From the NCBI GenBank assembly GCA_018831055.1, contig JAHJRE010000139.1, positions 38,380-102,379 on the forward strand: a stretch of 64,000 nt of DNA, read 5' to 3'. The stretch comes from Bacteroidota bacterium (GTDB lineage: Bacteria; Bacteroidota; Bacteroidia; Bacteroidales; B18-G4). Positions 2,502-62,246 of the stretch are shown in pieces. The position numbers and the translations under genes are program-made. The stretch's first letter is position 1; the number at the start of each line of letters is the position of its first letter. The notes under the pieces were generated by a model. It saw only the letters and a list, made by a program, of their open reading frames with translations. It was not told the origin of the DNA and made no database searches.

Positions 2502-4586
2502 TCATATTCCCATTTGCATTGCCACGATTTCTGCAATGTCATAGTTCTTCATCGACTCTTCCCTGTTTTTGTATTTGATGCCGTCGGTCATCATTACCAT
2601 GCAGAAGGGGCAGGCTGTTGCAATAATATTGGCGCTGGTTTCGAGCACATCTTCCATGCGTTCCAGGAAAACTTCCTTGTTTCCTTTTTCGGCTTCCTTG
2701 AACATCTGTCCTCCCCCGGCACCGCAGCAAAGGGCAAAGCTTTTCGTGCGCTTCATTTCCTTTAAATTACAGCCCATGCTTTTCAACACCTCACGGGGTG
2801 CATCGTATTCATCGTTTGCCCTGCCGAGATAACAGGGATCGTGGAAGGTAACAAGGTCGCCGGAGAATTTGCCATTACCGCTATGAATTACGCCTTTCCT
2901 GATAAGATCTTCCAGGAAACGGCTGTGATGGATCACCTCAAAATCTCCACCCAGATCGGGATATTCGTTTTTAAAGGTATTGTAGTCGTGGGGACAGCAG
3001 GTGACAATCTTTTTAACCCCATAGGCCTTCATTAACTCGATGTTCATCATGGCCTGCATCTGGAATAGCATTTCATTTCCGGCTCTTCTGGCTACATCTC
3101 CGCTATCGGTTTCTTCTGTCCCCAGCACGGCATAATCAATATTCAGATGATTGAGTATCTTGACAAACTCACGGGTCACTTTCTTGTAACGGTCGTCGAA
3201 AGCCCCTGCCGAGCCAACCCAGAAAAGATACTCCGGGGTCTTCCCTTCGGTTTGCAGCTGTGCCATGACCGGCACCTGCAAGCCTGCATCTTCAGCCCAT
3301 TTCATCCTGTCATCAGGAGAGAACTGCCAGGGGGCACCGTTGTTCTCAATATTGGTAAATATGGAATTCAGCTCACCCGGTCCTTTTGATTCCTCCATTA
3401 CCAGGTATCGTCGCATATCGACAATCAGAGTAGGGTGGTTGATGTTGATCGGACATTCCTGGGTGCAGGCATTACACGTTGTACATGCCCACAACTCTTC
3501 CTCGGTGATGAAATCACGGATAAGCGACTTGCCATCACTAAAGGATTCATCATTGACAAGCCCGGGACCTTTTTCCTTCATGCGTGCCCGTACATCCATG
3601 ATGATCTTCCTGGGTGAAAGCTTTTTACCGGTAATATTTGCCGGACATACCGCAGTGCATCTCCCGCATTCGGTGCAGGAAAGCGAATCGAGATAATTTT
3701 TCCAGGTGATGTCTTCCACATCCAGAACTCCAAACCTTTTCACAGGAGCCGCTTCATCTCCTGAAGGTTCTGCGTAAGCTGTGCTGGGGTCCATCATCAG
3801 CTTTACTTCTTTAGTGATCTCCGGCATGTTATATAGATACCCCAGTGGTTCCAAACGGCTCAGGAAAACGTTGGGAACCGACATGAACACATGAAAATGT
3901 TTTGAATAGGGGAGAATATTGGCAAAAAGGAAGATCCAGACAATATGTGCCCACCAGTTGATCTCATGCCAAAGAAAAGCAGAATGTTCCGGTAAACCTC
4001 CAAACCAGCCAGCGATAACAGCACTTATTGGAAACGTTCCATGTATGGTTTCGTCATGGGCTTCCGATAAAAGAATGTAAAAGGTGTTCATTCCCAGGAG
4101 CGAAACCATGAGCAGGAATATCAGGGTCAGCGCAAAGTTCGCATCCATATGCGAAGTATGCTTCATCTCCGCCCCGGTGAAACGCTTAATATGCATAAAA
4201 ATCCTGCGGAATAAAAAGGCCAGGATCAAAACCAGGATGATAAAAGCAAAGATATCACCGCTGGCAGTGATTACGTCATAAACAGGGCCAAGAACCGATA
4301 GAACCCTGTCTGTCCCCACCAACCCGTCGATAATCATTTCAATGCTGCCTATCAGAATGATGATAAAACCCCACCAAACCAGGGCATGCATCAGTCCTAT
4401 CACCGGCTTTCTCAATATCTTGGTTTGCCCGAAGGCCACCTTCAGCATGATCATGAACCGCTTCCCGAAGTTTTTGACAGGAAAGGGCCTGGTTAACCTG
4501 AAGAAACGATAATAACGGTAAGCTGTGTAAAAGAAAATGATCAGGGTGATCATTAATACCAGGGCGAAGACTATCTGTTTTGCCAT
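2502..4586 (-). CDS. Membrane-anchored (Fe-S)-binding oxidoreductase, HdrD/GlpC-like with CCG domains
   Basis: The N-terminal half is multi-TM. It has two ferredoxin-type motifs (CTECGRCTAVCP and CTTCNACTQECP). Cys-rich CCG-type blocks lie in the C-terminal half (CCPHDY, HDPCYLGR, CCGAGGG, ACPFCMVMM). Confidence 0.8.
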   Translation of the reverse strand: MAKQIVFALVLMITLIIFFYTAYRYYRFFRLTRPFPVKNFGKRFMIMLKVAFGQTKILRKPVIGLMHALVWWGFIIILIGSIEMIIDGLVGTDRVLSVLGPVYDVITASGDIFAFIILVLILAFLFRRIFMHIKRFTGAEMKHTSHMDANFALTLIFLLMVSLLGMNTFYILLSEAHDETIHGTFPISAVIAGWFGGLPEHSAFLWHEINWWAHIVWIFLFANILPYSKHFHVFMSVPNVFLSRLEPLGYLYNMPEITKEVKLMMDPSTAYAEPSGDEAAPVKRFGVLDVEDITWKNYLDSLSCTECGRCTAVCPANITGKKLSPRKIIMDVRARMKEKGPGLVNDESFSDGKSLIRDFITEEELWACTTCNACTQECPININHPTLIVDMRRYLVMEESKGPGELNSIFTNIENNGAPWQFSPDDRMKWAEDAGLQVPVMAQLQTEGKTPEYLFWVGSAGAFDDRYKKVTREFVKILNHLNIDYAVLGTEETDSGDVARRAGNEMLFQMQAMMNIELMKAYGVKKIVTCCPHDYNTFKNEYPDLGGDFEVIHHSRFLEDLIRKGVIHSGNGKFSGDLVTFHDPCYLGRANDEYDAPREVLKSMGCNLKEMKRTKSFALCCGAGGGQMFKEAEKGNKEVFLERMEDVLETSANIIATACPFCMVMMTDGIKYKNREESMKNYDIAEIVAMQMGI

Positions 4587-4743
4587 ATGCTGAAAGTGTT
4601 AATAATGAATTGGTTGTACTGCTTTATTCTTACGCAATGATAAGAATTTAATCATTTAGAATAAAAATAAATTGCATGTGTTTTCATGCGGCAAATCAAT
4701 GTTATTCAGGCTATGAACCTTATGACCTGAAAAGAATTATCCA

Positions 4744-12656: not shown

Positions 12657-12759
12657 GTTTTGTTAAATTTCAACATATACAAAAGCGAAACCAGGACCGT
12701 CAAATGGAATTGTCATTTCATGGACAGTGTTGCTGAAAGAAGGGATAGAATAATAATTA

Positions 12760-12785
12760 CGCAATACTGTTCGAGCAGTATTGCG
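12760..12785 (-). terminator. Hairpin terminator candidate after the bS22-like micro-gene
   Basis: A perfect 10-bp stem, cgcaatactg / cagtattgcg, with a 6-nt loop lies 10 nt downstream (minus sense) of the stop at 12795. Confidence 0.5.
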
Positions 12786-12794
12786 AAATTATCT

Positions 12795-12884
12795 TTATTT
12801 CTTCTTGTGTCTGTTTTTTCTCAGGCGTTTTTTCCGCTTGTGCGTCGCCATCTTGTGTCTTTTCCTTTTCTTACCGCTAGGCAT
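12795..12884 (-). CDS. 29-aa highly basic micro-protein, bS22-like (AURKAIP1/COX24-type) candidate ribosomal protein
   Basis: This is not in the ORF track because it is shorter than 60 aa. The reverse strand reads ATG...TAA = MPSGKKRKRHKMATHKRKKRLRKNRHKKK. It sits 22 bp downstream of hup and is followed by a perfect hairpin. Confidence 0.6.
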   Translation of the reverse strand: MPSGKKRKRHKMATHKRKKRLRKNRHKKK

Positions 12885-28870: not shown

Positions 28871-29335
28871 TTATTGCATCAACACGCTTTGAACCGGATA
28901 CCAGAAAACACCAATCAGCAATGCCGTGAGCAAGGGCCGTATCATGTTTTTCCAGGTTGTGTTCTTCCTGGCAAAAATGTTGTATCCATGGTTAATAGCC
29001 GATTGTAACAGAAAAAGCAGAAAAGTAAGCACAAGGGTTACATTGGCCATAGGATTCCAATGGGCAAAATAAACAAGCAGAGCCATGAGGGCAAAGGATA
29101 AGAAGGCAAATCCCGTCTGTTTCTGGTAATCGCTGCCTTGCTCGTAACCGGTTGCTTCTGCGGCTTTTTTTGCGAACAGAAGTCCTTCGATGGCGGAAAA
29201 CCCCGCGATGGAACCAAGGATCCAGGGTGTCATGATGTGCAGGATCTCTTCGGGGGTATCTCCAAGGTAATATGCCAGGAATATGCCAAGTCCAGTTCCG
29301 ACGATTCTAAGGATTTCAAGGATTTTAATGATCAT
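28871..29335 (-). CDS. Hypothetical integral membrane protein
   Basis: 154 aa with about four hydrophobic helices. I recognise no motif. Confidence 0.5.
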   Translation of the reverse strand: MIIKILEILRIVGTGLGIFLAYYLGDTPEEILHIMTPWILGSIAGFSAIEGLLFAKKAAEATGYEQGSDYQKQTGFAFLSFALMALLVYFAHWNPMANVTLVLTFLLFLLQSAINHGYNIFARKNTTWKNMIRPLLTALLIGVFWYPVQSVLMQ

Positions 29336-29353
29336 GGGTATATGGTTTATGGG

Positions 29354-31024
29354 TTATTGTTTTGGTTTGTTTCGACTCAAATTGACTTTGTCCAGTTTCC
29401 ATGCATTCAGGAAACCGAGTTTGACAATGCGTGTCATCTTATCGATGTTAACCTTTTCGATCTCATCCGTAGGTTGATGGTAATCGGTTGTAAAGCCGGC
29501 CATAAAGAATGCGAAAGGAATGCCTTTCATGGAGAACGGAGCATGGTCGCTGCCTCCACGTCCGCCTTCCGATGCACGAAATCCGATATCCAGGCCCAGT
29601 TCATGGGTTTCATTGTTCTTTTTGCTTATTTCTTCCAGGATGGGATGTGATTTGGAGTAGGAAAGGGAACATTTGTTTTTCAGGGTATCGTTGCGGGAAT
29701 CCCGTGAGATCATATCGAAATTCAGGTTGAGCAGAATGTTCTCCACGGGTTTTACGGGATGGTCGACGAAATAGCTTGAACCAAGCAACCCCATCTCTTC
29801 GCCTGTCCAGGCTGCGAAAACGATTGTCCGCTCCGGCTGTTCGCCGGTTGCAAGAAAGGCCCTGGCGATGGTCATTACACCCACAGTGCCGGATGCGTTG
29901 TCATCGGCCCCGTTCCAGATGTAGCCATCGTGAATGCCGAGGTGATCGTAATGGGCGCCCAGCACGATCAGCGAATCAGGATTTTTCCCTTCGATCATAC
30001 CGATTACATTGCGTGCTGTGACGATCTCCGATTCCATTGTTGTCACAAATCCGGCCTGTTTCCCGAAAATCTCCTTCGACATGGGTTTGGGCCGCGCTGC
30101 TATTGATTTATGGAATTCATCAGGATGGATGCCCGAACCATCGAGGAGGAGGTTCATGATGGCAGGGGTGACCCGGATGATCAGGGGATTGGTCTTCAGG
30201 GTGTCTTCCGGAAGACTGAAATCGTATTCATAAGGTGATTCCAGCTCTTCAGGGCCTTCATAAATAGCGGATTTAAAGCGGAATGGCAGGTTAACTGTCC
30301 AGTCTTTCTGTATGCCTTCATAACCGGGTTCAATAACGGCGATGGCTCCTCTTTCACGGGCTTCCTTATTCTTGTCGCGGTTGAGATAATAATACCCATA
30401 CCGGCCTTCCGGATGGAATTTGCGGAAGGCTTCGGAGGCTGTATCGTTAATTCCCGGGAACCCGGCAAGACGGATGATGATCTTGCCGCTGACGTCCACA
30501 CCCTGGTAATCGTTGTACCCTTCCTTTTCGTTCACATACCCGTAACCCACAAAAACCACCGGTGCTGCCCCGCTCATGCTTACCGGGGGCAAACTGCCGA
30601 ATTCGAAGTCTGTCTTGTAGGTGAAATGAAAAGTAGATTCACCATTCTTGTTTTTCTTTGTCACGGAAAGATGCTGTTCCTTGCCGGCTTTGCTTTTGAT
30701 CAGACTGAATTCCTGGAAAAAGGAACGGTATTTTTCGGGTTTCTTCCCTTCCCACCGTTCTTCCCGCGTAAGTTCCGTAAAACGGTAATCCCCGGCCGGG
30801 GCCAAACCATAGATCTTGAATATGCTCGCGATATAATCCCCGGCGATAAATTCACCCTTAGTACCTGTCTGACGACCTTCGGTCCAGTCGGAAGAAAGGA
30901 ACTCAAGCTGGCCCTGAACGGCTTCGGTGGTGATGGCTTCGAGGCCTTTGGTTGCGGGGTCTTCCTGGGAATACACCCACGAAAAGCATAATGCAAACAT
31001 CAAAATAGCGAAGATCTTTTTCAT
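29354..31024 (-). CDS. M28 family metallopeptidase (aminopeptidase) with PA-like insert
   Basis: A signal peptide is present. The M28 zinc-ligand blocks are GAHYDHLG, GADDNASGTVGV, FAAWTGEEMGLLGS and SDHAPF. Confidence 0.8.
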   Translation of the reverse strand: MKKIFAILMFALCFSWVYSQEDPATKGLEAITTEAVQGQLEFLSSDWTEGRQTGTKGEFIAGDYIASIFKIYGLAPAGDYRFTELTREERWEGKKPEKYRSFFQEFSLIKSKAGKEQHLSVTKKNKNGESTFHFTYKTDFEFGSLPPVSMSGAAPVVFVGYGYVNEKEGYNDYQGVDVSGKIIIRLAGFPGINDTASEAFRKFHPEGRYGYYYLNRDKNKEARERGAIAVIEPGYEGIQKDWTVNLPFRFKSAIYEGPEELESPYEYDFSLPEDTLKTNPLIIRVTPAIMNLLLDGSGIHPDEFHKSIAARPKPMSKEIFGKQAGFVTTMESEIVTARNVIGMIEGKNPDSLIVLGAHYDHLGIHDGYIWNGADDNASGTVGVMTIARAFLATGEQPERTIVFAAWTGEEMGLLGSSYFVDHPVKPVENILLNLNFDMISRDSRNDTLKNKCSLSYSKSHPILEEISKKNNETHELGLDIGFRASEGGRGGSDHAPFSMKGIPFAFFMAGFTTDYHQPTDEIEKVNIDKMTRIVKLGFLNAWKLDKVNLSRNKPKQ

Positions 31025-31156: not shown

Positions 31157-31248
31157 ATATTTGCAGAAAATTGGTTTTGTGCAAATAAATATTGTTATAT
31201 TTGCAGGAAATTAGATAAGTGCAAATAAGATGATTTATATTCGCAGAT
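31157..31248 (+). promoter_or_regulatory. 40-bp-phased operator-like repeats overlapping the Fic promoter
   Basis: Two 33-bp units (31157-31189 and 31197-31229) match at 27 of 33 positions. Each contains the palindrome TTTGCA-N14-TGCAAA (31160-31185 and 31200-31225). A third partial unit, ATATTCGCAG, starts at 31237. Unit 2 carries a perfect TATATTTG -7 box (31196-31203). Confidence 0.55.
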
Positions 31249-32382
31249 ATGTATATTAGGGATTTTATATCGGGAAAACAGGAGAAGCAATATCAGTACA
31301 GGAGTTTTCTGCCCAATCCCGTTAATCATGCCTGGATTACGGCTGATGAGAAATTGGACCATATGTTGAGCAGGGCGAACATCTGTTTGGGAGAATTGAA
31401 TGCTTTTTCTTCACTGGTGCCTGATGTTGATTATTTCATCAGGATGCATGTCCAGAAGGAGGCGTTGACGAGCAGCAGGATAGAAGGGACACGTACCCGG
31501 CTGGAAGAGGCATTACAAAAGGAGGAGTATATTGATCCGGAAAGGCGGGATGACTGGCAGGAGGTCAGGAACTATGTGCTGGCAATGAATACAAGTATTG
31601 AAAGCCTTTCCCGTTTGCCCATCAGTGGCAGGATAATCCGGCAGGCACATAAGGTACTATTGCAAGGAGTAAGAGGGGAGCATAAGCAGCCCGGTGAATA
31701 CCGTCAGTCACAGAACTGGGTGGGTGGCTCATCAATTCAGGATGCGCTTTTTATTCCTCCGCATCACACAGAGGTACCGGAGCTCATGAGTGACCTGGAA
31801 AAATTTTTGAACAATGAAGACCTGATGATTCCTGATCTGATAAGAATAGGGATTGCCCATTATCAGTTTGAGACCATACACCCATTCCTGGATGGTAATG
31901 GAAGGATAGGACGATTGATCATCACATTATTCCTGGTTAGCAGAAAGGTTTTGACCAGACCGGTGCTTTATCTCAGCGATTTCCTGGAGAAAAACAGGGT
32001 TCATTATTATGATCGTCTTACCCGTGCCCGTGTTCAGAACGACCTTGCTCAATGGCTTATCTTTTTCCTGGAAGGTGTAAGACAAACAGCAGAAAATTCA
32101 ATTATCACTTTCCGTAAGATCATAGATATGAGGCAGCGGCTTGAAACCCATGATATGCCCAAGCTCGGGAAAAAGGCACCTTCAGGCATGGCTTTGCTGC
32201 GGTTATTATATTCACAGCCGGTAGTGGATGGTAATGATGTTGCAGAAATGTTGAACGTGAACATCTCCACAGCCCTCAGGATGATCTCAGATTTTGAAAA
32301 GCTGGGCATCTTGCAGGAAATGACTGGTTACCGGCGTAACAGGGTATTTATTTTCGGGGAATATGTGAGCCTGTTTGGGTAA
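31249..32382 (+). CDS. Fic family protein (AMPylase/Fido domain) with N-terminal inhibitory motif and C-terminal winged-helix-like region
   Basis: The Fic motif HPFLDGNGRIGR is present. The N-terminal TSSRIEGT matches the (S/T)xxxE(G/N) auto-inhibition helix. The C-terminal ~80 aa look wHTH-like. Confidence 0.85.
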   Translation: MYIRDFISGKQEKQYQYRSFLPNPVNHAWITADEKLDHMLSRANICLGELNAFSSLVPDVDYFIRMHVQKEALTSSRIEGTRTRLEEALQKEEYIDPERRDDWQEVRNYVLAMNTSIESLSRLPISGRIIRQAHKVLLQGVRGEHKQPGEYRQSQNWVGGSSIQDALFIPPHHTEVPELMSDLEKFLNNEDLMIPDLIRIGIAHYQFETIHPFLDGNGRIGRLIITLFLVSRKVLTRPVLYLSDFLEKNRVHYYDRLTRARVQNDLAQWLIFFLEGVRQTAENSIITFRKIIDMRQRLETHDMPKLGKKAPSGMALLRLLYSQPVVDGNDVAEMLNVNISTALRMISDFEKLGILQEMTGYRRNRVFIFGEYVSLFG

Positions 32383-32600: not shown

Positions 32601-32719
32601 AATGGTTGGCTCAATCAACGCATCCAGCATGTATTGTCTCCATCTGTTTTATCAGGGTTGTTTTACAGGATTTCTTGATTTTCTTATTGTGGGGTAGAGT
32701 AAATTGGTGAGATGCTGGG

Positions 32720-32840
32720 CAGGTTACAGGTTGCAGGCTGCAGGTTGCAGGAGTTTGGGTTTGAGTTATGAGTTATGAGTTATGAGTTATGAGTTTAGCT
32801 TCCTGCAGCTTGAAACCTGTATCCTGTAACTTGAAACCTG
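32720..32840. repeat. Heptanucleotide-phased three-block array forming a long imperfect hairpin
   Basis: Seventeen in-phase 7-mers: CAGGTTA CAGGTTG CAGGCTG CAGGTTG CAGGAGT TTGGGTT (TGAGTTA)x4 TGAGTTT AGCTTCC TGCAGCT TGAAACC TGTATCC TGTAACT TGAAACC. The last block is the inverted complement of the first. Confidence 0.8.
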
Positions 32841-32862: not shown

Positions 32863-35085
32863 TCATTTCACCAAAACTTTAATATTCCATGAAGCATTTT
32901 TCCCCATTGCCCTTATCACATACATCCCTGCCGGCCAGTTGCTTACATCGATCTCGTGGATCATGGGACTGCCTGCGGTTTTGGTGATTTGCCGGTTGTA
33001 AACTGTTTTCCCGAAGGAATTGTATACCGCTATTTCGCTTTTCCCCTCCAGATTTTCATTCAGGAGAAGATTAATGCGGTCGTGAGCCGGGTTGGGAAAA
33101 ACGGTGATTCCTGGATCCTTTATTGCATTATCGCCAATTCCCACCCCAGGTGACGAAAAATGTATCCCGTCCAGCCACAGCTCAAAGCCATATTCCCAGG
33201 TGTCGGCGTGGAATTCCAGGAAGGAGATATCGCTGAAGGAGACATTGCCAAATATTGTCCGGCTCCAGGGGGATGCTCCGGTCAGCGGGATAGCGTAATG
33301 CTTCCACTGGTTCATGGTCGGGTTCAGGATGGTGCCGGCAGAAGCCGTGTATTTGTAATACCCCCCGCAATCATTTCCCAGGATGAAATTGCAGTACTGG
33401 AAGCCATATCCTGTGTTGTTCACGCTCCTGATCCACAGGAACAAGGTGTCGGTTTCATGCAGGGCCCAGGATGCGATGGAATCACCCCCCGGCCGGTAAA
33501 GCATGCCCAGGTCCCAGCCATTGCCGGTACTCAGGTGTATGGAGGCGTTCCCTTCCTTTTTGTTGACCGTATCCCAGGATGTGATGGTCGGTTCCCAGAG
33601 ACCATAAGACCAGCAGGCTTCAGGGTATGAAAACCAAACAGCCGGGGGCTCAGCAAGATCGGATACAGGGATGTGCTGCCAGGCAGGATCCGGGCCGGGG
33701 GTGAATGGATGCCAGATAACCTCGCCTACCGAAGAATTATCGTGGATGTCGTAAATATTACATGCGATCACATCTTCGTCGTTCAAACCGAAATCATTGG
33801 CTACCGCATATATTTCCTGGGTGCTCCGGTTCTCAATGTGATAAAAGGTACTTCTTTTAAAAAGGTTTCCGGTAATGGTATCATGCTGTGCTTCTCCTTC
33901 AATGTAAATACCATTGCGGTTTTCCAGGATGTCGTTGTGCTTCACGATCAGGCCTTCCGTCTTTTTGGCCGAGATGGCAATGGTATTCCCCTGTATGGTA
34001 TTTCCCAGGATTTGGTAATCGTGGGAATATTGATTCTGGTAGGGAGGAATCCCGTCTCCTTCCCAAAGCTCTATCCCTGTGGGGTTTTCGTTGATGATAT
34101 TGTGCGTGATCGTATTGTTGTATCCCCTGTCGATGGCAATGCCGGAATGTTGATTGCCGATCACCTCGTTGCTGTCGACCAGGCTGTTGAATGAATAACC
34201 CAGCCAGAACCCGTAATGGCTGTAGTTACAGAGGTTGTGTTTGTAAACATTGCCATCGGCAAAAGTGGCCTCAATCGCGTTGTGCGGCGAATAGGAGCAA
34301 TCATTGTAAGCGAAATAGTTGTTGTTGGGTATGCTCGAATATTCATATTGTCCCAGGAAAATGCCATCGCCGGAATAGGTGAAGTCATTGTGCACAACCG
34401 TGTTTTCGTTGGATACGATCAGCAGGATGGCCGCACAATCGCTCGGGTCGGTTTCACGGTTCACATGGCTGCAAACATTGTGATGGATGTAGCAGGAATC
34501 GGTAAAATTCATCCGGATACCAAATCCTGTGTTCCAGTTCAGGATATTGTCGTGGATATGGATACTATCGCAATCATACATGGCCACCCCGTCGTTCTGT
34601 TGCTGCATAGTGTTATCGAAGACTTCCACTGCCCGGCACTGGTCCATCAGCACACCACCACCCAGTGCTGAATTTACGCCGGTCCAGATAGAGATCCATC
34701 CTGTGGTATCTTTTTTATTATGTGAAAACACATTCCCGTTTATGATGATATTATGCGAATTTTTAATCTTAACGGCATAGTAGTAATCTTTTACCATTTC
34801 GAAATTCCGGATGATGATGTCATGTGAATTCTCAATAATGGCCATGTAACCCTGGTCATCCGCGCCGTTTACGGTTACGCTGTCGCCATCGATGATGATG
34901 TTGTGTTTGTTGATGATGCGGATGACCCCGTCTTTTTCAGGATCAGGGAAATTATACGTGCCACCTATGATGTTATACCAGGAACCGCTGGGAATATCCC
35001 AGTTGTCCTGAAGGGGTATATATTGCTGTGCTGAAAGGCTTGAATACAGGAATAATCCTGAAAGAATTACAATGATATTTTTCAT
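32863..35085 (-). CDS. Right-handed parallel beta-helix repeat protein with T9SS C-terminal sorting domain
   Basis: ORF 32863..35112 opens with TTG; the likely start is ATG 35085 (MKNIIVILSGLFLYSSLSAQ). It has repeated NxxIxxN beta-helix turns (NSHDIIIRNF, NSHNIIINGN, HIHDNILNWN, ITHNIINEN). The C-terminal VFPNPAHDRINLLL...GMYVIRAMG is a T9SS CTD. Confidence 0.8.
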   Translation of the reverse strand: MKNIIVILSGLFLYSSLSAQQYIPLQDNWDIPSGSWYNIIGGTYNFPDPEKDGVIRIINKHNIIIDGDSVTVNGADDQGYMAIIENSHDIIIRNFEMVKDYYYAVKIKNSHNIIINGNVFSHNKKDTTGWISIWTGVNSALGGGVLMDQCRAVEVFDNTMQQQNDGVAMYDCDSIHIHDNILNWNTGFGIRMNFTDSCYIHHNVCSHVNRETDPSDCAAILLIVSNENTVVHNDFTYSGDGIFLGQYEYSSIPNNNYFAYNDCSYSPHNAIEATFADGNVYKHNLCNYSHYGFWLGYSFNSLVDSNEVIGNQHSGIAIDRGYNNTITHNIINENPTGIELWEGDGIPPYQNQYSHDYQILGNTIQGNTIAISAKKTEGLIVKHNDILENRNGIYIEGEAQHDTITGNLFKRSTFYHIENRSTQEIYAVANDFGLNDEDVIACNIYDIHDNSSVGEVIWHPFTPGPDPAWQHIPVSDLAEPPAVWFSYPEACWSYGLWEPTITSWDTVNKKEGNASIHLSTGNGWDLGMLYRPGGDSIASWALHETDTLFLWIRSVNNTGYGFQYCNFILGNDCGGYYKYTASAGTILNPTMNQWKHYAIPLTGASPWSRTIFGNVSFSDISFLEFHADTWEYGFELWLDGIHFSSPGVGIGDNAIKDPGITVFPNPAHDRINLLLNENLEGKSEIAVYNSFGKTVYNRQITKTAGSPMIHEIDVSNWPAGMYVIRAMGKNASWNIKVLVK

Positions 35086-35436
35086 AACTGCCGGTTTTGG
35101 TTTCGAATGCAAAAGGTAAAGATTTTTTTTGGATATTTAAAAATCCCTGTTTATTTTTGGAGTCTCATTACTTGCCGATGAAACCTATCATCATTACCGG
35201 CTTTCTTTTTGTGACCTGCTAAGGTCATACCGGACATATTCATCCGGTTGTTTTCGGAATTATTTCCCGGAGCTTTTTTTCAATTAACATATTTTTTATT
35301 CATCAAAATTTCGGAGGAAAAACCATGAAAAATCAAATTACCCTTATGCCAGGATTTGTGATTAACATCCTTTCGGGCTGTTATGCCCTGATAAACCATT
35401 TGAAACTGTTAAATCCCAATCAAAAACGAAAACGAA

Positions 35437-36894
35437 ATGAAAAATAACCATAAAGCCAGGCATTTTCTACTATTTTATTTACCTGTAAGAAAGATCACTA
35501 CTTTCCGGTGGAAAAGTTTTTACAGGGATCTGTATGAAGCCATTTCCGGTTCGGAGCAGGATTTTACGCAAGGCAGCCTGCGACGGGCCATTTTTCTTCT
35601 TTCCATCCCAATGGTTTTGGAGATGTTGATGGAATCCATCTTTGCCATTGTTGACATATTCTTTGTTTCCCGGCTGGGCGCTGATGCTGTGGCCACGGTA
35701 GGTTTAACCGAAAGCATGCTGACCATCGTTTATTCGTTGGGAGTGGGCTTTGCTATGGGCGCAACGGCACTTGTTTCACGGCGTATTGGTGAAAAAGACC
35801 CGGAAGCAGCGGCTACTTCAGGCTTTCAGGCTATAATAATCGGAGTTGTATTTTCAGTTCCCCTGGCAATAGCCGGGATCTTTTATGCCGGCGATCTGCT
35901 GGAACTCATGGGCGCTTCTCCTGAATTAATAGAAAGCTATTCGGGTTACCTGCGTATCATGCTGGGATCCAATGTGGTGATTATGTTGTTGTTTATAAAC
36001 AATGCCATCTTCCGCAGTGCCGGTGATGCGGTGGTAGCCATGCGCGTGCTGTGGTTCGCCAACATCCTGAATATCATCCTTGATCCTTTGCTGATCTTTG
36101 GTTTAGGACCTTTTCCCGAATTGGGCATAGAAGGTGCTGCCATAGCTACCGTTATTGGAAGGGGACTGGCGGTGATTTACCAGTTTTACCTGTTATTCAG
36201 GGGATCAACGAGGATTGTTTTACGGAAAAAGAATTTCCGGATCATCCCTAATGTTATGACACGCCTGATCAGGCTTTCATCGGGTAACATCGGTCAATAC
36301 CTCATTGCCACGGCAAGCTGGATAGGTATGGTCAGGATCATTTCCGAATTCGGGAGCGAAGTATTGGCCGGTTATACCATTGCCATCAGGATCATCATTT
36401 TTGCATTATTGCCAACTTTAGGAATAAGTAATGCGGCTGCTACTCTGGTAGGACAAAACCTGGGAGCCGGTAAGCCCGATCGTGCAGAGAGATCCGTTTG
36501 GGGTACCAGTAAGATCAACGTGGTGATCCTGGGTATGATCGGACTTATGCTGGTTGCCATACCTGAGTTTTTCATCGGGATGTTTATCGGCGATCCTGCC
36601 GTTCTGAAATCCGGTTCAGCCTGTCTGAGGATCATCGCCAGCGGTTTCCTCTTTTACGGTTTCGGTATGGTGCTGGTCAATTCGTTCAATGGCGCCGGTG
36701 ATACGATGACTCCTTTATGGATCAACCTCTTTTGTTTCTGGGTGGTTGAGATTCCTCTGGCATATTTCCTGGCGATAACATCAGGAATAGGCGAAAACGG
36801 GGTTTATTATGCCATCCTGATCGCCGAATCGCTGATGACCATCACTGCATTTGTGATTTTCCGGCGGGGGAGATGGAAGCTGAAAGTTGTTTGA
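35437..36894 (+). CDS. MATE family efflux transporter
   Basis: 485 aa with about 12 TM helices. The typical N-terminal GSLRRAIFLLSIPMVLEML block and internal duplicated halves are present. Confidence 0.85.
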   Translation: MKNNHKARHFLLFYLPVRKITTFRWKSFYRDLYEAISGSEQDFTQGSLRRAIFLLSIPMVLEMLMESIFAIVDIFFVSRLGADAVATVGLTESMLTIVYSLGVGFAMGATALVSRRIGEKDPEAAATSGFQAIIIGVVFSVPLAIAGIFYAGDLLELMGASPELIESYSGYLRIMLGSNVVIMLLFINNAIFRSAGDAVVAMRVLWFANILNIILDPLLIFGLGPFPELGIEGAAIATVIGRGLAVIYQFYLLFRGSTRIVLRKKNFRIIPNVMTRLIRLSSGNIGQYLIATASWIGMVRIISEFGSEVLAGYTIAIRIIIFALLPTLGISNAAATLVGQNLGAGKPDRAERSVWGTSKINVVILGMIGLMLVAIPEFFIGMFIGDPAVLKSGSACLRIIASGFLFYGFGMVLVNSFNGAGDTMTPLWINLFCFWVVEIPLAYFLAITSGIGENGVYYAILIAESLMTITAFVIFRRGRWKLKVV

Positions 36895-36900
36895 CAGAGA

Positions 36901-36934
36901 CAGATGACATCTGCCCCCGGGCAGATGTCATCTG
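36901..36934. repeat. 34-bp palindromic element, copy 1 (bidirectional terminator-like)
   Basis: cagatgacatctg-cccccggg-cagatgtcatctg has 13-bp perfect outer arms plus a GC core. It lies between the convergent MATE and TatT-like genes. The right arm contains the minus-strand stop codon (36928-36930). Confidence 0.8.
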
Positions 36935-37809
36935 AATATTTCTTCCCGCTGATCCAGCAATTCCTGCGATTGACGCTGAAAAAAAACATTCCAGGGAAAA
37001 GGATTCCCTGCTTTATGCGGATCCTGGTTGAGAACCCATTCCAGGTCGCTGACAAAAGCTTCTTCCTCTCCTGTTAAAGAATACAAATATTTTGCTCTTC
37101 CCCAGCGGTTTACAAGATAAGTAGGACCAACTTCAATGGCCTTGTTAAAGTATTCCCTGGCTTTTTCCTTGCTGCCTCCAAACTTTTCCGGGATGGCAAC
37201 ATAATAAATGCCCCTTGAAAATGCATTGCCTCCACCGGCCCAGGTAGGATCGATCTTGTCCATGCGATCCATGATGATGTTGTTGTGTATGACAAGCCGG
37301 GTATTAAAAACCCTGCCTAGTCCTGACAAACAATCCTTGAAATAATTGAAAATGGCGGTGTACCAGTATCCCATGGCCCATATTTCCCGCTCTCCAAGCA
37401 CCTCGCAGGCCTCCCATACAGGAACTCCCTGATCCGCGAGCTTTTTAAATTCAGGATTCGTGTACATCGCCGCTTCACAATACCGTATGGCTTCTTTGTA
37501 ATAGCGTTTCCGCTCACTTTTTTTACTTGCATAGGCGGCGCCCATGAGAATGTTGTAATTGCCTGTCTTCCAGAGCGCGTAGATGTTGTCGGGGTCGTAT
37601 TGCAGGGCTTTTTTATAGGTCGCGATCAATTCCTGCACTTTTGCAGCATCATCGGCCTGTTGCTCCAGGGTGGCAGCCTCGTCCAGAATGGCTGAGGCAT
37701 CCTGTTGTATGCTGCCGTAATCGATCTCTTTCCAGCCCGGTTTCCAGGAAACGCAGGAACTGCACAAGATGATGGCAGCAAATAATGAAATATAAATGGG
37801 TTTTTTCAT
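36928..37809 (-). CDS. TPR-like lipoprotein, TatT-family-like
   Basis: A lipoprotein signal (AAIILCSSC) is present. The helical repeat protein has a C-terminal block GGNAFSRGIYYVAIPEKFGGSKEKAREYFNKAIE that resembles the TRAP T-component (TatT) family, by recollection. Confidence 0.5.
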   Translation of the reverse strand: MKKPIYISLFAAIILCSSCVSWKPGWKEIDYGSIQQDASAILDEAATLEQQADDAAKVQELIATYKKALQYDPDNIYALWKTGNYNILMGAAYASKKSERKRYYKEAIRYCEAAMYTNPEFKKLADQGVPVWEACEVLGEREIWAMGYWYTAIFNYFKDCLSGLGRVFNTRLVIHNNIIMDRMDKIDPTWAGGGNAFSRGIYYVAIPEKFGGSKEKAREYFNKAIEVGPTYLVNRWGRAKYLYSLTGEEEAFVSDLEWVLNQDPHKAGNPFPWNVFFQRQSQELLDQREEIFR

Positions 37810-37830
37810 GGGTATAATATTTATTTGTGA

Positions 37831-37864
37831 CAGATGACATCTGCCCCGGGGGAGATGTCATCTG
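37831..37864. repeat. 34-bp palindromic element, copy 2
   Basis: cagatgacatctg-ccccgggg-gagatgtcatctg differs from copy 1 at two central positions. The right arm contains the stop codon (37858-37860) of the hydrolase gene. Only 21 nt separate it from the start of the TatT-like gene. Confidence 0.8.
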
Positions 37865-38886
37865 ATTAAATCATAACCAAGTCCTTCCGTATTGACCCTG
37901 AAAAGGGTTGTGTCACTCAGATCAGGCTGTTCTCCATGGAAAATGGTATTGTAAAACTCCCTGAGGTTGGGTATTTCTTCCATTATTTCTCCCAGGAAAT
38001 AGGTGTGTGAAGCTCCGGTTGGAGTCCTGAAACCAACCGTTTCGGTGAAGTTGATATATATTGCATTGCCGGCCAGCGGGGGATAAATGCGTTCACCAAG
38101 CTGTTTTCCATCGTTTGTGAAGAACCTTACCCCGTTAAGGTTAAAATCCATTTTGTTGCTGGTCACATAAATATTTCGCGCAAAATTGATCTTCTCCAGC
38201 CATTTTTCATGCCCTTCTGCATTCACGGCCGCGGCGTTAAGTACGAGATTGTCGAAAAGGCCGGGTTGCAGGTTTATTGTGATGCTGCTGTCTGTTGCAA
38301 CTCTTTCCAGGAAGTAGTTACCCAGGCTGTGATGGAACATGGTAAGCCGGGAGTTTTTCCATGGACTGTCAGGGGCAGTCTTGTATTCCTGGATTAGTTC
38401 AAGCATGTTGTAAAACTGACCGGCCGACAAGCGTACATTATTTTGTGAGTTTTTAAAGTTTTTCGTGCCAAACGATTCAGGAAGTCTGGAAGGCCATGTG
38501 AAAAGCAATACATTTACATCGTATGTGTTTTCAATTTCCAATCCGCGGTCCGCAGCCTCATCAAAAGCTTTATAATCTCCATGGACGAAGACCACGATGT
38601 CTTTTCCTGAAGGCATATCCTGTAAAAGATCGTTGAGATCACTCCGTAACTGGTAGTTCCATCTTTCCATCGGACATTTGCAACCTTTGACAAACCTGAG
38701 CCGGCCCTGAGGGTCAACCTTGCTGCCAAAAAACATTCCCGGTTCGTCCGGTGGGTTAATGGTCCGGTTGGTGATGATCCAGATGCAGGAATCCTGTTCC
38801 TGGCCGAATACAGACAGATTCCATGTTAACAGGAAGTTAGCGAGAATCAAAACAAGCAGGTTATTCCAGATAGTATTCATATGCAT
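37858..38886 (-). CDS. Alpha/beta hydrolase (DUF900-like)
   Basis: ORF 37858..38898 opens with GTG; the likely start is ATG 38886 or 38880. A signal peptide is present. VVFVHGDYKAFDEA and the nucleophile-elbow-like HHSLGNY fit an alpha/beta hydrolase. Confidence 0.55.
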   Translation of the reverse strand: MHMNTIWNNLLVLILANFLLTWNLSVFGQEQDSCIWIITNRTINPPDEPGMFFGSKVDPQGRLRFVKGCKCPMERWNYQLRSDLNDLLQDMPSGKDIVVFVHGDYKAFDEAADRGLEIENTYDVNVLLFTWPSRLPESFGTKNFKNSQNNVRLSAGQFYNMLELIQEYKTAPDSPWKNSRLTMFHHSLGNYFLERVATDSSITINLQPGLFDNLVLNAAAVNAEGHEKWLEKINFARNIYVTSNKMDFNLNGVRFFTNDGKQLGERIYPPLAGNAIYINFTETVGFRTPTGASHTYFLGEIMEEIPNLREFYNTIFHGEQPDLSDTTLFRVNTEGLGYDLIR

Positions 38887-39074
38887 TTTTTTAGGCACTT
38901 AAATATAGTTAATATTTGTTTATTCATTCTTAATTATTTAAAAACCATATCCATTTGCGAAGCGAAACTGTCCATCGGTAAATTGAAATCATTTGTTGAT
39001 ATGGATTTGTTTGATCCTTCCTGATAAAATATTACCTTTAATTCGTAATAAACTATTAACCAAAACCCAATACC

Positions 39075-40109
39075 ATGAAAAATTTTACCATGCTTAAAAG
39101 CGTAGTTTTAGTCCTTTCTTTTTTGTTCAGCAGTTTCTTCATTTTTGGTCAGAGCGTTCTTTGTGTCGACAGGGATGGTAGTTTTTATTCTGAAAGCTTT
39201 ACCGATGTCTGGCCACGTTACCAGGAAGTACTGGATGCCCTTGGACTGACCTACGATTATTTTGAAGTGGAAGATCCAGCCAACAACGGGCCGGATGCTA
39301 CCGCCATGAATGCTTACGACATTGTTCTTTGGTTCACCGGAGAAACCTGGCAGGAGAGCCAGACCATGACCAATGACGATGAGTTTAACCTTTTACTATA
39401 CACCAGCGTGAACAGTGGTAAATTGCTCCTTTCCGCACAGGATTACCTTTGGGACCGCTACAGCTCTGCCGGTGTATTGTCTTCAGGTTCTTTTCCTTAT
39501 GATGTTCTGGGTTTAAGGGAAGTACTTCAGGATGTCTGGAATCTAGATTTTCCTGATACTTCAGTAGTAGCCGGTGTGGCAGGTTCCCTGGCTGACGGGA
39601 TGTTATTCGGAATAGAAGACTTGTACACAACGGAATCCCGTGAAGGTTTATATATTGATCTGATGATTGACCATGCGGGACAAAGCCTTCTTGAGATGAG
39701 TTATGCAGGATCCGATAGTGTTACCGCTATTCAGTATGATGCCGGCAATTATCGCACCATTTTCTCAACGGTTTCACTTGCCTGTGTTATCCAGCCGACA
39801 CTTAGGACAGAATTGTTGGAGCGGATGTTTGCATGGTTGATGGGCACAATTGGAACCCGGGAAATACTGCCGGAGCAAAACCTCGAAATATTGGTCTATC
39901 CAAATCCGGTGAAAGATATTGTGACTATCGGAACGGACGTGGATATAGATGAGTTGTGTATTTACAATTCGATGGGCCAACTGGTTTATCAAGCTGAACC
40001 GGGAGATTATAAGGTTCAGGTTAACCTTAACGGTTTAAATCCCGGGATGTACACCATTTTAGTGAATACTCAATCCGGGGTAAAGACTTCCAGGATGCTG
40101 GTTGAGTAG
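39075..40109 (+). CDS. Secreted protein of unknown function with T9SS C-terminal sorting domain
   Basis: A signal peptide is present. The C-terminal VYPNPVKDIVTIGT...GMYTILVNTQSGVKTSRMLVE is a T9SS CTD. Confidence 0.65.
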   Translation: MKNFTMLKSVVLVLSFLFSSFFIFGQSVLCVDRDGSFYSESFTDVWPRYQEVLDALGLTYDYFEVEDPANNGPDATAMNAYDIVLWFTGETWQESQTMTNDDEFNLLLYTSVNSGKLLLSAQDYLWDRYSSAGVLSSGSFPYDVLGLREVLQDVWNLDFPDTSVVAGVAGSLADGMLFGIEDLYTTESREGLYIDLMIDHAGQSLLEMSYAGSDSVTAIQYDAGNYRTIFSTVSLACVIQPTLRTELLERMFAWLMGTIGTREILPEQNLEILVYPNPVKDIVTIGTDVDIDELCIYNSMGQLVYQAEPGDYKVQVNLNGLNPGMYTILVNTQSGVKTSRMLVE

Positions 40110-40141
40110 TTTGTTCAGGACATTAGTGAATTTCTATAAAT

Positions 40142-40180
40142 AAAAAGTCTTCCAGGTTTTTTAAATCAGGAAGACTTTTT
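40142..40180 (+). terminator. Rho-independent terminator candidate
   Basis: A perfect 12-bp stem aaaaagtcttcc / ggaagacttttt with a 15-nt loop. The 3' arm ends in a T-run, 33 nt after the stop at 40109. Confidence 0.6.
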
Positions 40181-40230
40181 ATATTTAGGTTTAATTTGTA
40201 TATTTCGATGGAAAATTAATCCATATCATT

Positions 40231-49330: not shown

Positions 49331-50461
49331 TTAAATAACAAACTCCCAAAAGTTATCCCTGGTAATACTCTTATAATTGTCTCCATATTGCTCTACCCAT
49401 GTTTTAGGAGCAATTTTCCTGGCTTTTTTGTATTTTATTTCATAGGCATATAGTTTTCCGCCCTTTTCTTCAATATAATCGATTTCGGCACCGGTATAGG
49501 TTCTCCAGAAATAGGAGGAAAGGAAATTCTGAGTGTATTCCAGGTATTTAAACCTTTCTGAAATGATGAAATTTTCCCACAATGCTCCAACATCATTTCT
49601 AATATTGAAACTATTGAAGTTTTCTACCAAGCAGTTTCTGACACCAAGATCCCAAAAATATATTTTATTTCTCTTAGATACCTCTTTCCTGAGATTCCGG
49701 CTATAACCACCTAAGCGGAATATGATAAATGCTTTTTCAAGTAATTCAATATATGATGCCACGGTTTCCTGGCTTAGCTTCAGGTTCAGTGCAAGCTCGT
49801 TGACGGATGTTTCAGAGCCGATTTGAAGCGCCAGTAGTTTTAAAAGCGATGAAATCTTTGAATTATTTTTTATTGATGATAATTCGAAAACATCCTTATA
49901 CAAATATGCAGAAGTAAGTTCACGTAAATACTTTTCTTTGGAATGGCCTGATGTGTGATGAAAAATCACCGGATACATGCCATATATCATGTATTCTTCC
50001 AACTTGCTTTGTAGTTCAAATGCATTGACTTGAACAGACAATTCAGATAATGAGATCGGATACAGAATATGAGTGGAGGTTCGCCCTGTCAGTGGTTCCT
50101 TGACTTTGTTTGCCAGATCAAAAGATGAAGAACCTGTTGCAAGAATTTTTAATGAAGGCCAATTGTCATGAATTATCTTCAGGTTGATGCCTATATCAGG
50201 AATTCTTTGTGCTTCATCAATAAAGAGAATGTCATATCCTGATACCAATAACTTCATACGATCAAGGTCACGTGAAGAGAGTACATCTGCATATTTTATC
50301 TCATCCGCATTTATTTTAAGTACTGATTCACTTGTACCGCTCAGGACATCATTGGAAAGTGTTGTTTTTCCGGTTTGCCTTGCACCATATAAAATAATGA
50401 TGTTTCTGTTGTTTTTCAGGTCTTCCTGGATAGAATTAAATATTTTCCGGACTATTTTCAT
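49331..50461 (-). CDS. AAA-type ATP-binding protein with DUF4143-like C-terminal domain
   Basis: Walker A is YGARQTGKTTL and Walker B is ILFIDEAQ. The C-terminal block YFWRTYTGAEIDYIEE is typical of this family. Confidence 0.8.
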   Translation of the reverse strand: MKIVRKIFNSIQEDLKNNRNIIILYGARQTGKTTLSNDVLSGTSESVLKINADEIKYADVLSSRDLDRMKLLVSGYDILFIDEAQRIPDIGINLKIIHDNWPSLKILATGSSSFDLANKVKEPLTGRTSTHILYPISLSELSVQVNAFELQSKLEEYMIYGMYPVIFHHTSGHSKEKYLRELTSAYLYKDVFELSSIKNNSKISSLLKLLALQIGSETSVNELALNLKLSQETVASYIELLEKAFIIFRLGGYSRNLRKEVSKRNKIYFWDLGVRNCLVENFNSFNIRNDVGALWENFIISERFKYLEYTQNFLSSYFWRTYTGAEIDYIEEKGGKLYAYEIKYKKARKIAPKTWVEQYGDNYKSITRDNFWEFVI

Positions 50462-50608
50462 AGAACAAATTTTGGAATAAAGGTAGTAAATTCACGTGAA
50501 AATTTCAAATCAATTCGAAATATTCACGTTAAATTTTCGAATGAATCTTAAAAATTCAGGGGAATCTTTTATCATGGAGGAGAATTATCTGCTGATTAAG
50601 ATATGGAG

Positions 50609-61985: not shown

Positions 61986-62148
61986 GATTAAAATTTTAGA
62001 ATAGTCTTAATTGCAAGTTTTCAGATTGTTATCTTATTGTTGTTCGTGAATTACCTTTTCTTCAGCTTTAGGGGCTCAAAATACAAATTTCCCGACAATG
62101 AAAAGGCGAAATATCTATTGATTTTCGGGATATGGTAGCAAATAGTTA

Positions 62149-62246
62149 CAGGTTTCAGGGTTCAAGTTGCAGGTTGCAGCCTGTTACCTGTAACCTGTAA
62201 CCTGAATCCTGAATCCTGTCGCTTGCAACCTGCACCATGGAACCTG
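62149..62246. repeat. Heptanucleotide-phased inverted array (CAGGTTN / NAACCTG), second locus
   Basis: Fourteen in-phase 7-mers: CAGGTTT CAGGGTT CAAGTTG CAGGTTG CAGCCTG TTACCTG TAACCTG TAACCTG AATCCTG AATCCTG TCGCTTG CAACCTG CACCATG GAACCTG. It lies in the divergent region between the STAND gene and the gene starting at 62375. Confidence 0.8.

Follow-up and report, generated by a model that had tools for sequence, protein, structure and literature searches.

A 34-bp palindrome, present twice and overlapping two stop codons, in an uncultured member of the Bacteroidales

The 64,000-nt stretch of contig JAHJRE010000139.1 analysed here (the window), from the genome of an uncultured Bacteroidales bacterium, carries two copies of a 34-bp palindrome, CAGATGACATCTG-(8 nt)-(C/G)AGATGTCATCTG, at nt 36901-36934 (copy 1) and 37831-37864 (copy 2). 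The copies bracket a gene for a TatT-like lipoprotein, and each supplies the last codon and the stop of a minus-strand gene. With moderate confidence, the element can be regarded as a low-copy, lineage-specific transcribed hairpin that resembles the repetitive extragenic palindromic (REP) elements, its transcription and function being predicted from the DNA rather than read from transcripts. In the manner of REP elements, the palindromes would probably work as hairpins in the RNA where genes end.

A search of the window that allowed up to three mismatches found no site of the palindrome beyond these two, and 100 dinucleotide-preserving shuffles of the window gave an expected count of 0.00 against the two observed. 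This bears out the initial annotation, which had described the palindrome at two positions with two central differences. On the plus strand, copy 1 reads CAGATGACATCTG-CCCCCGGG-CAGATGTCATCTG and copy 2 reads CAGATGACATCTG-CCCCGGGG-GAGATGTCATCTG; 32 of the 34 bases are identical, and the differences fall at positions 18 (C/G) and 22 (C/G). One substitution separates each copy from the perfect palindrome CAGATGACATCTGCCCC/GGGGCAGATGTCATCTG. The copies are real and not an assembly artefact, because two other contigs carry both with the central differences unchanged: one of 127,982 bp from the European Nucleotide Archive, which matches at 99.95% identity over 20.9 kb, and a Logan contig of 4,103 bp, which matches at 100% and runs through the two unbroken. 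The element has a 13-8-13 layout, in which 13-bp inverted arms flank an 8-bp centre and the arm centres lie 21 bp apart. The arms are themselves palindromes (CAGATG-W-CATCTG), a property that had been overlooked at first, and each is built around the core GATGWCATC. The core occurs four times in the window, every time within copies 1 and 2.

The right arm of each copy, read on the minus strand, gives the final Arg codon and the TGA stop of an open reading frame (ORF), as the initial annotation had stated for both ORFs. The TatT-like protein ends ...EEIFR, with AGA at 36931-36933 and TGA at 36928-36930 in the right arm of copy 1, and the DUF900 alpha/beta-hydrolase ends ...YDLIR, with AGA-TGA at 37858-37863 in the right arm of copy 2. 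A distance of 21 nt separates the end of copy 2 from the tatT ATG (37809) downstream of it, again in agreement with the earlier description. Copy 1 is located between the convergent matE and tatT-like genes, a point that had not been made before, and copy 2 between the co-directional DUF900 and tatT-like genes. The features of the locus are collected in Table 1. For the DUF900 gene, gene callers give a product of 340 amino acids (start at 38880), and the longest ORF has 346.

Table 1. Genes and palindrome parts at the tatT-like locus (positions in the window).
Feature	Position	Strand	Remarks
matE efflux gene	35437..36894	+	Convergent with the tatT-like gene; stop 6 nt before copy 1
Copy 1	36901..36934	none	13-bp arm, CCCCCGGG centre, 13-bp arm; 16-bp perfect stem
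Left arm, copy 1	36901..36913	none	CAGATG-A-CATCTG, 13-bp palindrome with GATGWCATC core
Right arm, copy 1	36922..36934	none	CAGATG-T-CATCTG; minus strand gives C-AGA-TGA of the tatT-like end
tatT-like TPR lipoprotein gene	36928..37809	-	293 amino acids; Pfam TAtT PF16811; between copies 1 and 2; stop inside copy 1
A/U-rich 21-nt spacer UCACAAAUAAAUAUUAUACCC	37810..37830	-	Between copy 2 and the tatT AUG
Copy 2	37831..37864	none	Centre CCCCGGGG; right arm opens with G
Left arm, copy 2	37831..37843	none	CAGATG-A-CATCTG
Right arm, copy 2	37852..37864	none	GAGATG-T-CATCTG; minus strand gives C-AGA-TGA of the DUF900 end
DUF900 alpha/beta-hydrolase gene	37858..38898	-	Stop inside copy 2

The DUF900 and tatT genes are adjacent and co-directional in four other lineages (L028, L031/L032/L033, L036 and L037), that is, in five including this genome. 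Protein identities place this genome with L028, its sister lineage, followed by L031 and then by L036 and L037. The gap between the two genes is 48 nt here, where it holds copy 2, and 8 nt in L028, 60 nt in L031, 9 nt in L036 and 41 nt in L037. This conserved adjacency, with gaps of 8 to 60 nt, supports a predicted co-transcription of the pair. The motif CACAAAT is found in the 21-nt spacer between copy 2 and tatT and also in the 9-nt spacer of L036. No GATGWCATC site is present in the DUF900-tatT gap of any of the four relatives; as the site is empty in all of them, copy 2 is, by this comparison, a lineage-specific gain.

The protein ends were scarcely affected. TatT ends ..EIFR in this genome, ..EIFE in L028, ..EIFD in L031, ..KTFK in L036 and ..KIFK in L037, and the five C-termini share one alignment column. 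The corresponding DUF900 ends (..YDLIR, ..FDILK, ..YDLLK, ..YDILKK and ..YDIVY) do so in four of the five, that of L036 being one residue longer. The TGA of the element coincides exactly with the native stop position in both genes, where the relatives carry AAA-TGA, AAA-TAA, GAA-TGA or GAT-TAG. The initial annotation had proposed that insertion rewrote the C-termini. That a copy was gained at the DUF900 end and the last residue changed is upheld, but the alignment with orthologues from the four relatives gives no sign of truncation or extension; judged from it, the C-termini kept their length and the freely variable last residue alone became Arg. Since this residue varies freely among the orthologues and lengths are kept, overlap of the element with the last codon would cost little.

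On the other side of tatT, a GC hairpin unrelated to the palindrome, with TTATTTTT after it, forms a textbook terminator in the sister lineage L028. As this ordinary terminator stands at the same position after tatT, the palindrome of copy 1 fills a terminator slot. The tatT 3' flanks of L036 and L037 contain no GATGWCATC site. Gene content between tatT and the M28 peptidase gene differs by lineage, with no gene in L031, matE and a small ORF in L028, and matE, a NosD/beta-helix protein of the type IX secretion system (T9SS) and a Fic protein in this genome (31249-36894), and the tatT 3' flank is therefore, on this comparison, a site of repeated rearrangement.

A related element follows tatT in the L031 lineage. 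In L031, 7 nt past the TAG stop of tatT, there is a perfect 46-bp palindrome, CAGATGTCATC-CAGATGTCATC-C-GGATGACATCT-GGATGACATCTG, which consists of four GATGWCATC units spaced by 11, 12 and 11 bp. The lineage has this single element only. Its TatT is about 70% identical to that of this genome, and the intergenic DNA around the palindrome cannot be aligned between the two. The recurrence of the core at an orthologous tatT flank cannot, from these sequences, be chance. It would fit an ancestral element that L028 replaced, which takes a single gain and a single loss, or else a common source from which the core was gained twice independently. The heptads into which the arms of the 34-bp element had been parsed in the initial annotation were rejected as a by-product of the CA..TG symmetry of the arms, and they are absent from the L031 element, which has a period of 11 bp. 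The element differs among the three strains of the lineage (L031:8310-8356, L032:6491-6537, L033:3329-3357). The unit centres are T, T, A, A in L031 and T, A, A, A in L032, and L033 opens with T, T, T, its contig ending inside the element. Over 16.5 kb, L031 and L032 have 99.84% identity and differ by 26 substitutions. Two of these fall inside the 46-bp element and give unit 2 the same form as units 3 and 4. About 0.07 substitutions would be expected there by our own arithmetic (P about 0.003).

As RNA, copy 1 folds at -29.1 kcal/mol on the minus strand (z -4.8) and -29.7 kcal/mol on the plus strand (z -5.9), and copy 2 folds at -22.6 kcal/mol (z-score -4.1), strong folds when set against shuffled sequence. 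The stems of both copies are perfect, 15-16 bp long and free of G-U pairs, and they are the only perfect stems of at least 12 bp in about 81 kb of this genome. The four-unit palindromes of the L031 lineage fold at -38.8 (L031, with a 22-bp stem) and -33.4 kcal/mol. A known RNA family was dropped from consideration, the covariance models of Rfam 15 giving no relevant match up to E = 10 in nt 35000-40000. On the plus strand, in the sense of matE, copy 1 is followed by AATATTTCTT, which is T-rich in part, and passes a scan for a hairpin with a T-tail; copy 1 on the minus strand and copy 2 on both strands fail that scan, copy 2 having no T-rich tail. Because the matE stop codon lies only 6 nt before copy 1, and because no other combination of copy and strand passes, copy 1 is a plausible matE terminator; for tatT it would be a 3'-end hairpin without a U-tract. 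Judged by their conserved adjacency, DUF900 and tatT form an operon, and copy 2, which lies within it, lacks a tail and precedes an unstructured A/U-rich leader of 21 nt, is best read as a putative intercistronic hairpin. A read-through hairpin at copy 2, as first suggested, is thus plausible, given the absence of a T-rich tail and the adjacency of DUF900 and tatT in five lineages. A sigma-70 promoter scan is not applicable to Bacteroidota. No exact TAnnTTTG box was found upstream of tatT, and none upstream of DUF900 either, so that the result is uninformative about promoter absence. The initial annotation had seen no space for a separate promoter in the 21 nt before tatT, but one within the DUF900 coding region may serve the gene.

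The element is only partly a canonical terminator. Copy 1 is like one in its GC-centred hairpin, in its place between convergent genes and, for the matE direction, in a tail that is T-rich in part, and L028 has a canonical hairpin and T-run at the same place. Unlike terminators, copy 1 has no U-tract in the tatT direction, copy 2 lacks one altogether and is placed within an operon, the stem overlaps coding sequence, and terminators are not normally duplicated at 32/34 identity. RNase III hairpins, such as the intercistronic sites of phage T7 and the sib retroregulation site of lambda, have long perfect stems between cistrons or 3' of a gene and control the stability of the upstream message. 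The window copies likewise have perfect stems between cistrons or just 3' of a gene, and the L031 stem reaches 22 bp, but the 15-16-bp stems of the window are shorter than the classical substrates, and cleavage is putative.

Read as a transcribed hairpin, copy 1 would act as a terminator or 3' barrier for matE and as a protective 3'-end hairpin for tatT, and copy 2 as an intercistronic hairpin of the DUF900-tatT operon that RNA polymerase reads through. Both stems open 4 nt ahead of the stop codon, and because of this a terminating ribosome would have to melt them, so that upstream translation and hairpin formation would be coupled. The effects to be expected are those of REPs by stop codons, namely slow termination, protection of the mRNA 3' end, or processing by a double-strand-specific RNase. 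Flanking ORFs often take their stop codons from REP termini (PMC3733652), and Escherichia coli REPs that lie closer than 16 nt to a stop codon cause ribosomes to stall and reduce translation, according to earlier work as cited in PMC12306157.

Several points weigh against this reading. Termination, read-through and processing at the hairpins are all predictions from sequence, and in the tatT sense neither copy has a U-tract. Perfect Watson-Crick stems without G-U pairs are a sign of recent DNA symmetry and not of selection on RNA structure. The 9-nt core is kept at 56-68% protein identity, which selection for a hairpin alone would not predict and which points to sequence-specific recognition; survival of the core across about 30% protein divergence would therefore indicate a protein or a mobilising enzyme as the recognising agent. 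The copying mechanism is conjecture, and no transposase gene occurs within about 81 kb.

Recognition of the DNA itself would offer one way to account for the conserved core. Each 13-bp dyad arm would bind a dimeric protein, and two or four such sites on one helix face would serve as an operator or as a roadblock where tatT ends and in front of it. The palindromic nature of the arms themselves fits such a site, as does their spacing, counted from the sequences, of 21 bp here and of 11, 12 and 11 bp in L031, which is near whole helical turns, although this phasing is based on two architectures only. It is also the 9-nt core that is common to the lineages, spacers and arrangement being different, and the tatT start codon follows copy 2 after 21 nt. 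We nevertheless consider a protein site unlikely, as the sites are on gene 3' ends, unit number and orientation vary between 99.8% identical strains, unlike a conserved operator, and there is no linked regulator, the nearest helix-turn-helix gene being of the ArsR type and belonging to a separate thioredoxin/DsbD/ArsP operon about 7 kb away.

The history of the transcribed hairpin may be reconstructed as follows. The ancestor would have been a perfect 34-bp palindrome, formed by two inverted 13-mers with a GATGWCATC core each around a CCCCGGGG centre. A palindrome based on GATGWCATC would have been present at the tatT 3' flank, or acquired by it, and later the 34-mer, perhaps extended by a single base at one end and by two at the opposite end, would have been copied about 930 bp away onto the upstream DUF900 end; the two copies have in common 34 bp, possibly plus T on the 5' side and TC on the 3' side, and nothing else. 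Perfect palindromes provoke replication template switching. One route for the copying would be such a switch through microhomology at the A-TGA of the stop codon, followed by selection for the intact protein, and joining at this microhomology would explain the stop-codon register without further assumptions. By another route, a trans-acting enzyme would have placed the element, and selection would have kept only the insertion that preserved the protein.

Another alternative is that the palindrome arose and spread locally through replication stalling, template switching and slippage, and is a selfish or neutral by-product with no selected function, which would persist only because its location on a stop codon and a freely variable last codon is harmless. 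It is serious as an alternative for function, not for origin, and we rate it as rather improbable. The presence of just two copies, 930 bp apart and each one mutation from a perfect palindrome, would be expected of it, as would the hypervariability of the L031-lineage element, with two of the 26 substitutions in 46 bp and a third strain rearranged again; the window also has other intergenic arrays of short units, first direct and then inverted. A transient error, however, is unlikely to leave the same core at the orthologous tatT flank of two lineages about 30% apart in protein sequence, and the element fills the exact slot of the sister lineage's normal terminator.

The position of the copies on either side of one gene raises the possibility of site-specific recombination, by which tatT could be excised or else inverted, an inversion taking it out of the DUF900 operon and placing it under read-through from matE. 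Bacteroidales commonly have invertible DNA segments, the 13-bp inverted arms and 8-bp centre have the geometry of lox and FRT sites, and the stop codon of each gene is in the arm that lies on that gene's side of the centre, so that exchange at the centres would, in our reading, keep the three ORFs intact. Tyrosine recombinases require identical, asymmetric overlap regions, and lox and FRT sites are defined by such an overlap of 6-8 bp together with a recombinase. Here the centres differ (CCCCCGGG and CCCCGGGG) and are nearly symmetric, one being symmetric, and the arms are self-palindromic, unlike those of lox. No recombinase gene lies within about 81 kb, the L031 lineage has a single element, and the order and orientation of DUF900 and tatT are fixed in five lineages. 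A short-read contig (L027) spans both copies unbroken, and the tatT segment has one orientation in the two assembled contigs compared. Recombination at the element is accordingly very improbable. Readings as attC sites, att sites or an island were rejected as well, the bracketed gene being syntenic in five lineages; no integron attC core sites (RYYYAAC ... GTTRRRY), which mark the 3' ends of mobile cassettes lacking promoters, are present in the sequence, and a gene of such synteny is not a cassette.

Genomic context was taken from the called genes and their Pfam annotation. Among the annotated genes of the window and 10 kb on each side there is none for a transposase, an integrase or a recombinase, and no gene for a REP-associated tyrosine transposase (RAYT). 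The window is ordinary chromosomal DNA. Many gene products of the window and its flanks carry T9SS sorting domains, which, together with the source names recorded for TatT homologues, indicate an uncultured bacterium of the Bacteroidales or at least of the Bacteroidota.

The approximately 81 kb of the source genome hold no further copy and no further pair of GATGWCATC sites. With two adjacent copies in that length, more than about 150 copies would, by our estimate, be unlikely if they were randomly placed in a genome with an assumed size of about 4 Mb. Tolerant two-arm patterns were used to scan 185,579 species genomes and the JGI metagenomes, and no other 34-mer of this build was found in the two result sets, from both of which the source organism itself is absent; protein look-up found the same organism in other assemblies. 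The matches were mostly unrelated tandem arrays containing AGATGNCATCT or ordinary hairpins, and one (L024) was coding sequence. They were rejected as family members, tandem arrays being so numerous in 596 Gb that ascertainment suffices to explain them. A scan of viral contigs returned generic hairpins only, the single match among plasmid records was partial and at chance level (E = 3, Pseudorhodobacter), and phages yielded nothing by BLAST, on which grounds a phage or plasmid origin was rejected. A literature search for the element sequence retrieved primer coincidences only.

Comparison with REP elements, which belong to Proteobacteria and are mobilised by RAYT (Y1 HUH) transposases, shows both likenesses and differences. 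A REP family has tens to hundreds of copies scattered over a genome, in which the repeats also flank a RAYT gene. REPs and their mosaic assemblies (bacterial interspersed mosaic elements, BIMEs) are 20-40-bp palindromes between convergent or co-directional genes, near or over stop codons and also between the cistrons of operons, and inverted dimers of units, as seen here, resemble BIMEs. At 34 bp with 15-16-bp stems, the element falls within the size of REP stem-loop palindromes (20-40 bp). A REP also has a GTAG (or CGTC) tetranucleotide at one unit end (PMC3733652), and neither tetranucleotide is present in the two copies or the adjacent bases, the ends reading CAGATG and CATCTG. The element further differs from REPs in its perfect stems, which in REPs are imperfect with G-U pairs, in its self-palindromic arms, in its two copies in about 81 kb with none elsewhere in the collections scanned, and in having no RAYT gene nearby. 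It is therefore not filed as a REP, lacking the tag and, in about 81 kb, the copy number, and belongs to a REP-like class of low-copy, tag-less, nested palindromes. MITEs (miniature inverted-repeat transposable elements) have terminal inverted repeats around an internal region, a target-site duplication and usually a length of 50-500 bp. Here the whole element is a single 34-bp palindrome. Beyond it, the two sites have at most a T (one flank) and a TC (opposite flank) in common, with neither a direct duplication of the target nor separate terminal inverted repeats. The REP/MITE-type mobile repeat family of the initial annotation thus survives as a REP-like hairpin; neither the source-genome region nor the public scans contained a family, and MITE features are lacking.

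A metagenome-assembled genome of Ferruginibacter (JBDSDG01) contains dispersed intergenic arrays with two to five copies of a 17-bp unit, GGGGTAGATGWCATCTG, often closed by an inverted unit (L006:444-469 and 1224-1305; L013:4394-4454; L018:9-86; L019:3450-3475 and 4533-4609). The unit matches the half-element GGGGCAGATGTCATCTG in 16 of 17 bases, 11 of which were imposed by the query, and the match may be coincidence. The arrays share no neighbour gene, the neighbours being unrelated housekeeping genes (MiaE, ribosomal protein L19, PDZ, GNAT and a T9SS protein). If true, the resemblance would point to a wider Bacteroidota system that recognises the GATGWCATC core.

On a bolder and quite unlikely reading, GATGWCATC would be the recognition core of an undescribed sequence-specific Bacteroidota system. 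This would be an enzyme that mobilises DNA, or else a factor that binds DNA or RNA, and it would plant and remodel small palindromic units where genes end. Its presence would fit with the core being found beside tatT, at orthologous positions but in different architectures, in two diverged lineages, and also with the remodelling among strains and the 16/17 half-element arrays of Ferruginibacter. If so, an active process that brings its own TGA into line with the stop codons of the host would have left the two copies in the window as its footprint.

The locus shows how the end of a gene can receive a copy of a small palindrome while the protein keeps its length and changes in its last residue only. 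If the hairpins act as predicted, it would be a compact natural case, in the poorly studied Bacteroidales, of a stop-overlapping stem-loop that ties translation termination to mRNA 3'-end structure in an operon. Comparisons at this locus are at hand in a sister with an ordinary terminator, four empty copy 2 sites and a strain-variable related element. No established picture is changed, as REP-like overlap with stop codons has already been documented in Proteobacteria.

Tandem arrays of heptamers and minisatellites, the TAACTGA repeats being an example, are known from intergenic DNA of Bacteroidota and cyanobacteria, where they sometimes overlap stop codons (PMC4679880). Such arrays are like the elements described here in being intergenic, with a short unit in direct and then inverted order, and unit number varies in the elements of the relatives; in contrast, the unit here is a 9-13-bp palindrome, present twice per element in inverted order. 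The window has heptamer arrays of its own, several with direct and then inverse units that give long hairpins, in sequences unrelated to the 34-bp palindrome. They are found between convergent ORFs at 2440-2498 (GATCGGA x2 ... GATCTTC x4) and 32719-32840 (GCAGGTT x4.7, GAGTTAT x6.7 and a 21-mer x1.9), between divergent ORFs at 62145-62219 (GTTGCAG x5, then CCTGTAA x5.7), and at 29334-29357 (ATGGGTT x3.3). Longer units are repeated at 31157-31247 (40 bp, x2.3), ending 2 nt before a Fic-domain ORF (31249-32382, plus strand), and at 50488-50558 (32 bp, x2.2), upstream of an AAA_14/DUF4143 ORF (49331-50461, minus strand). Two long, imperfect AT-rich inverted repeats, each in a gap between long ORFs, are probably ordinary terminators, one at 40134-40188 (26-nt arms, 85% complementary), just past ORF 39075-40109, and the other at 12744-12801 (29-nt arms, 79% complementary).

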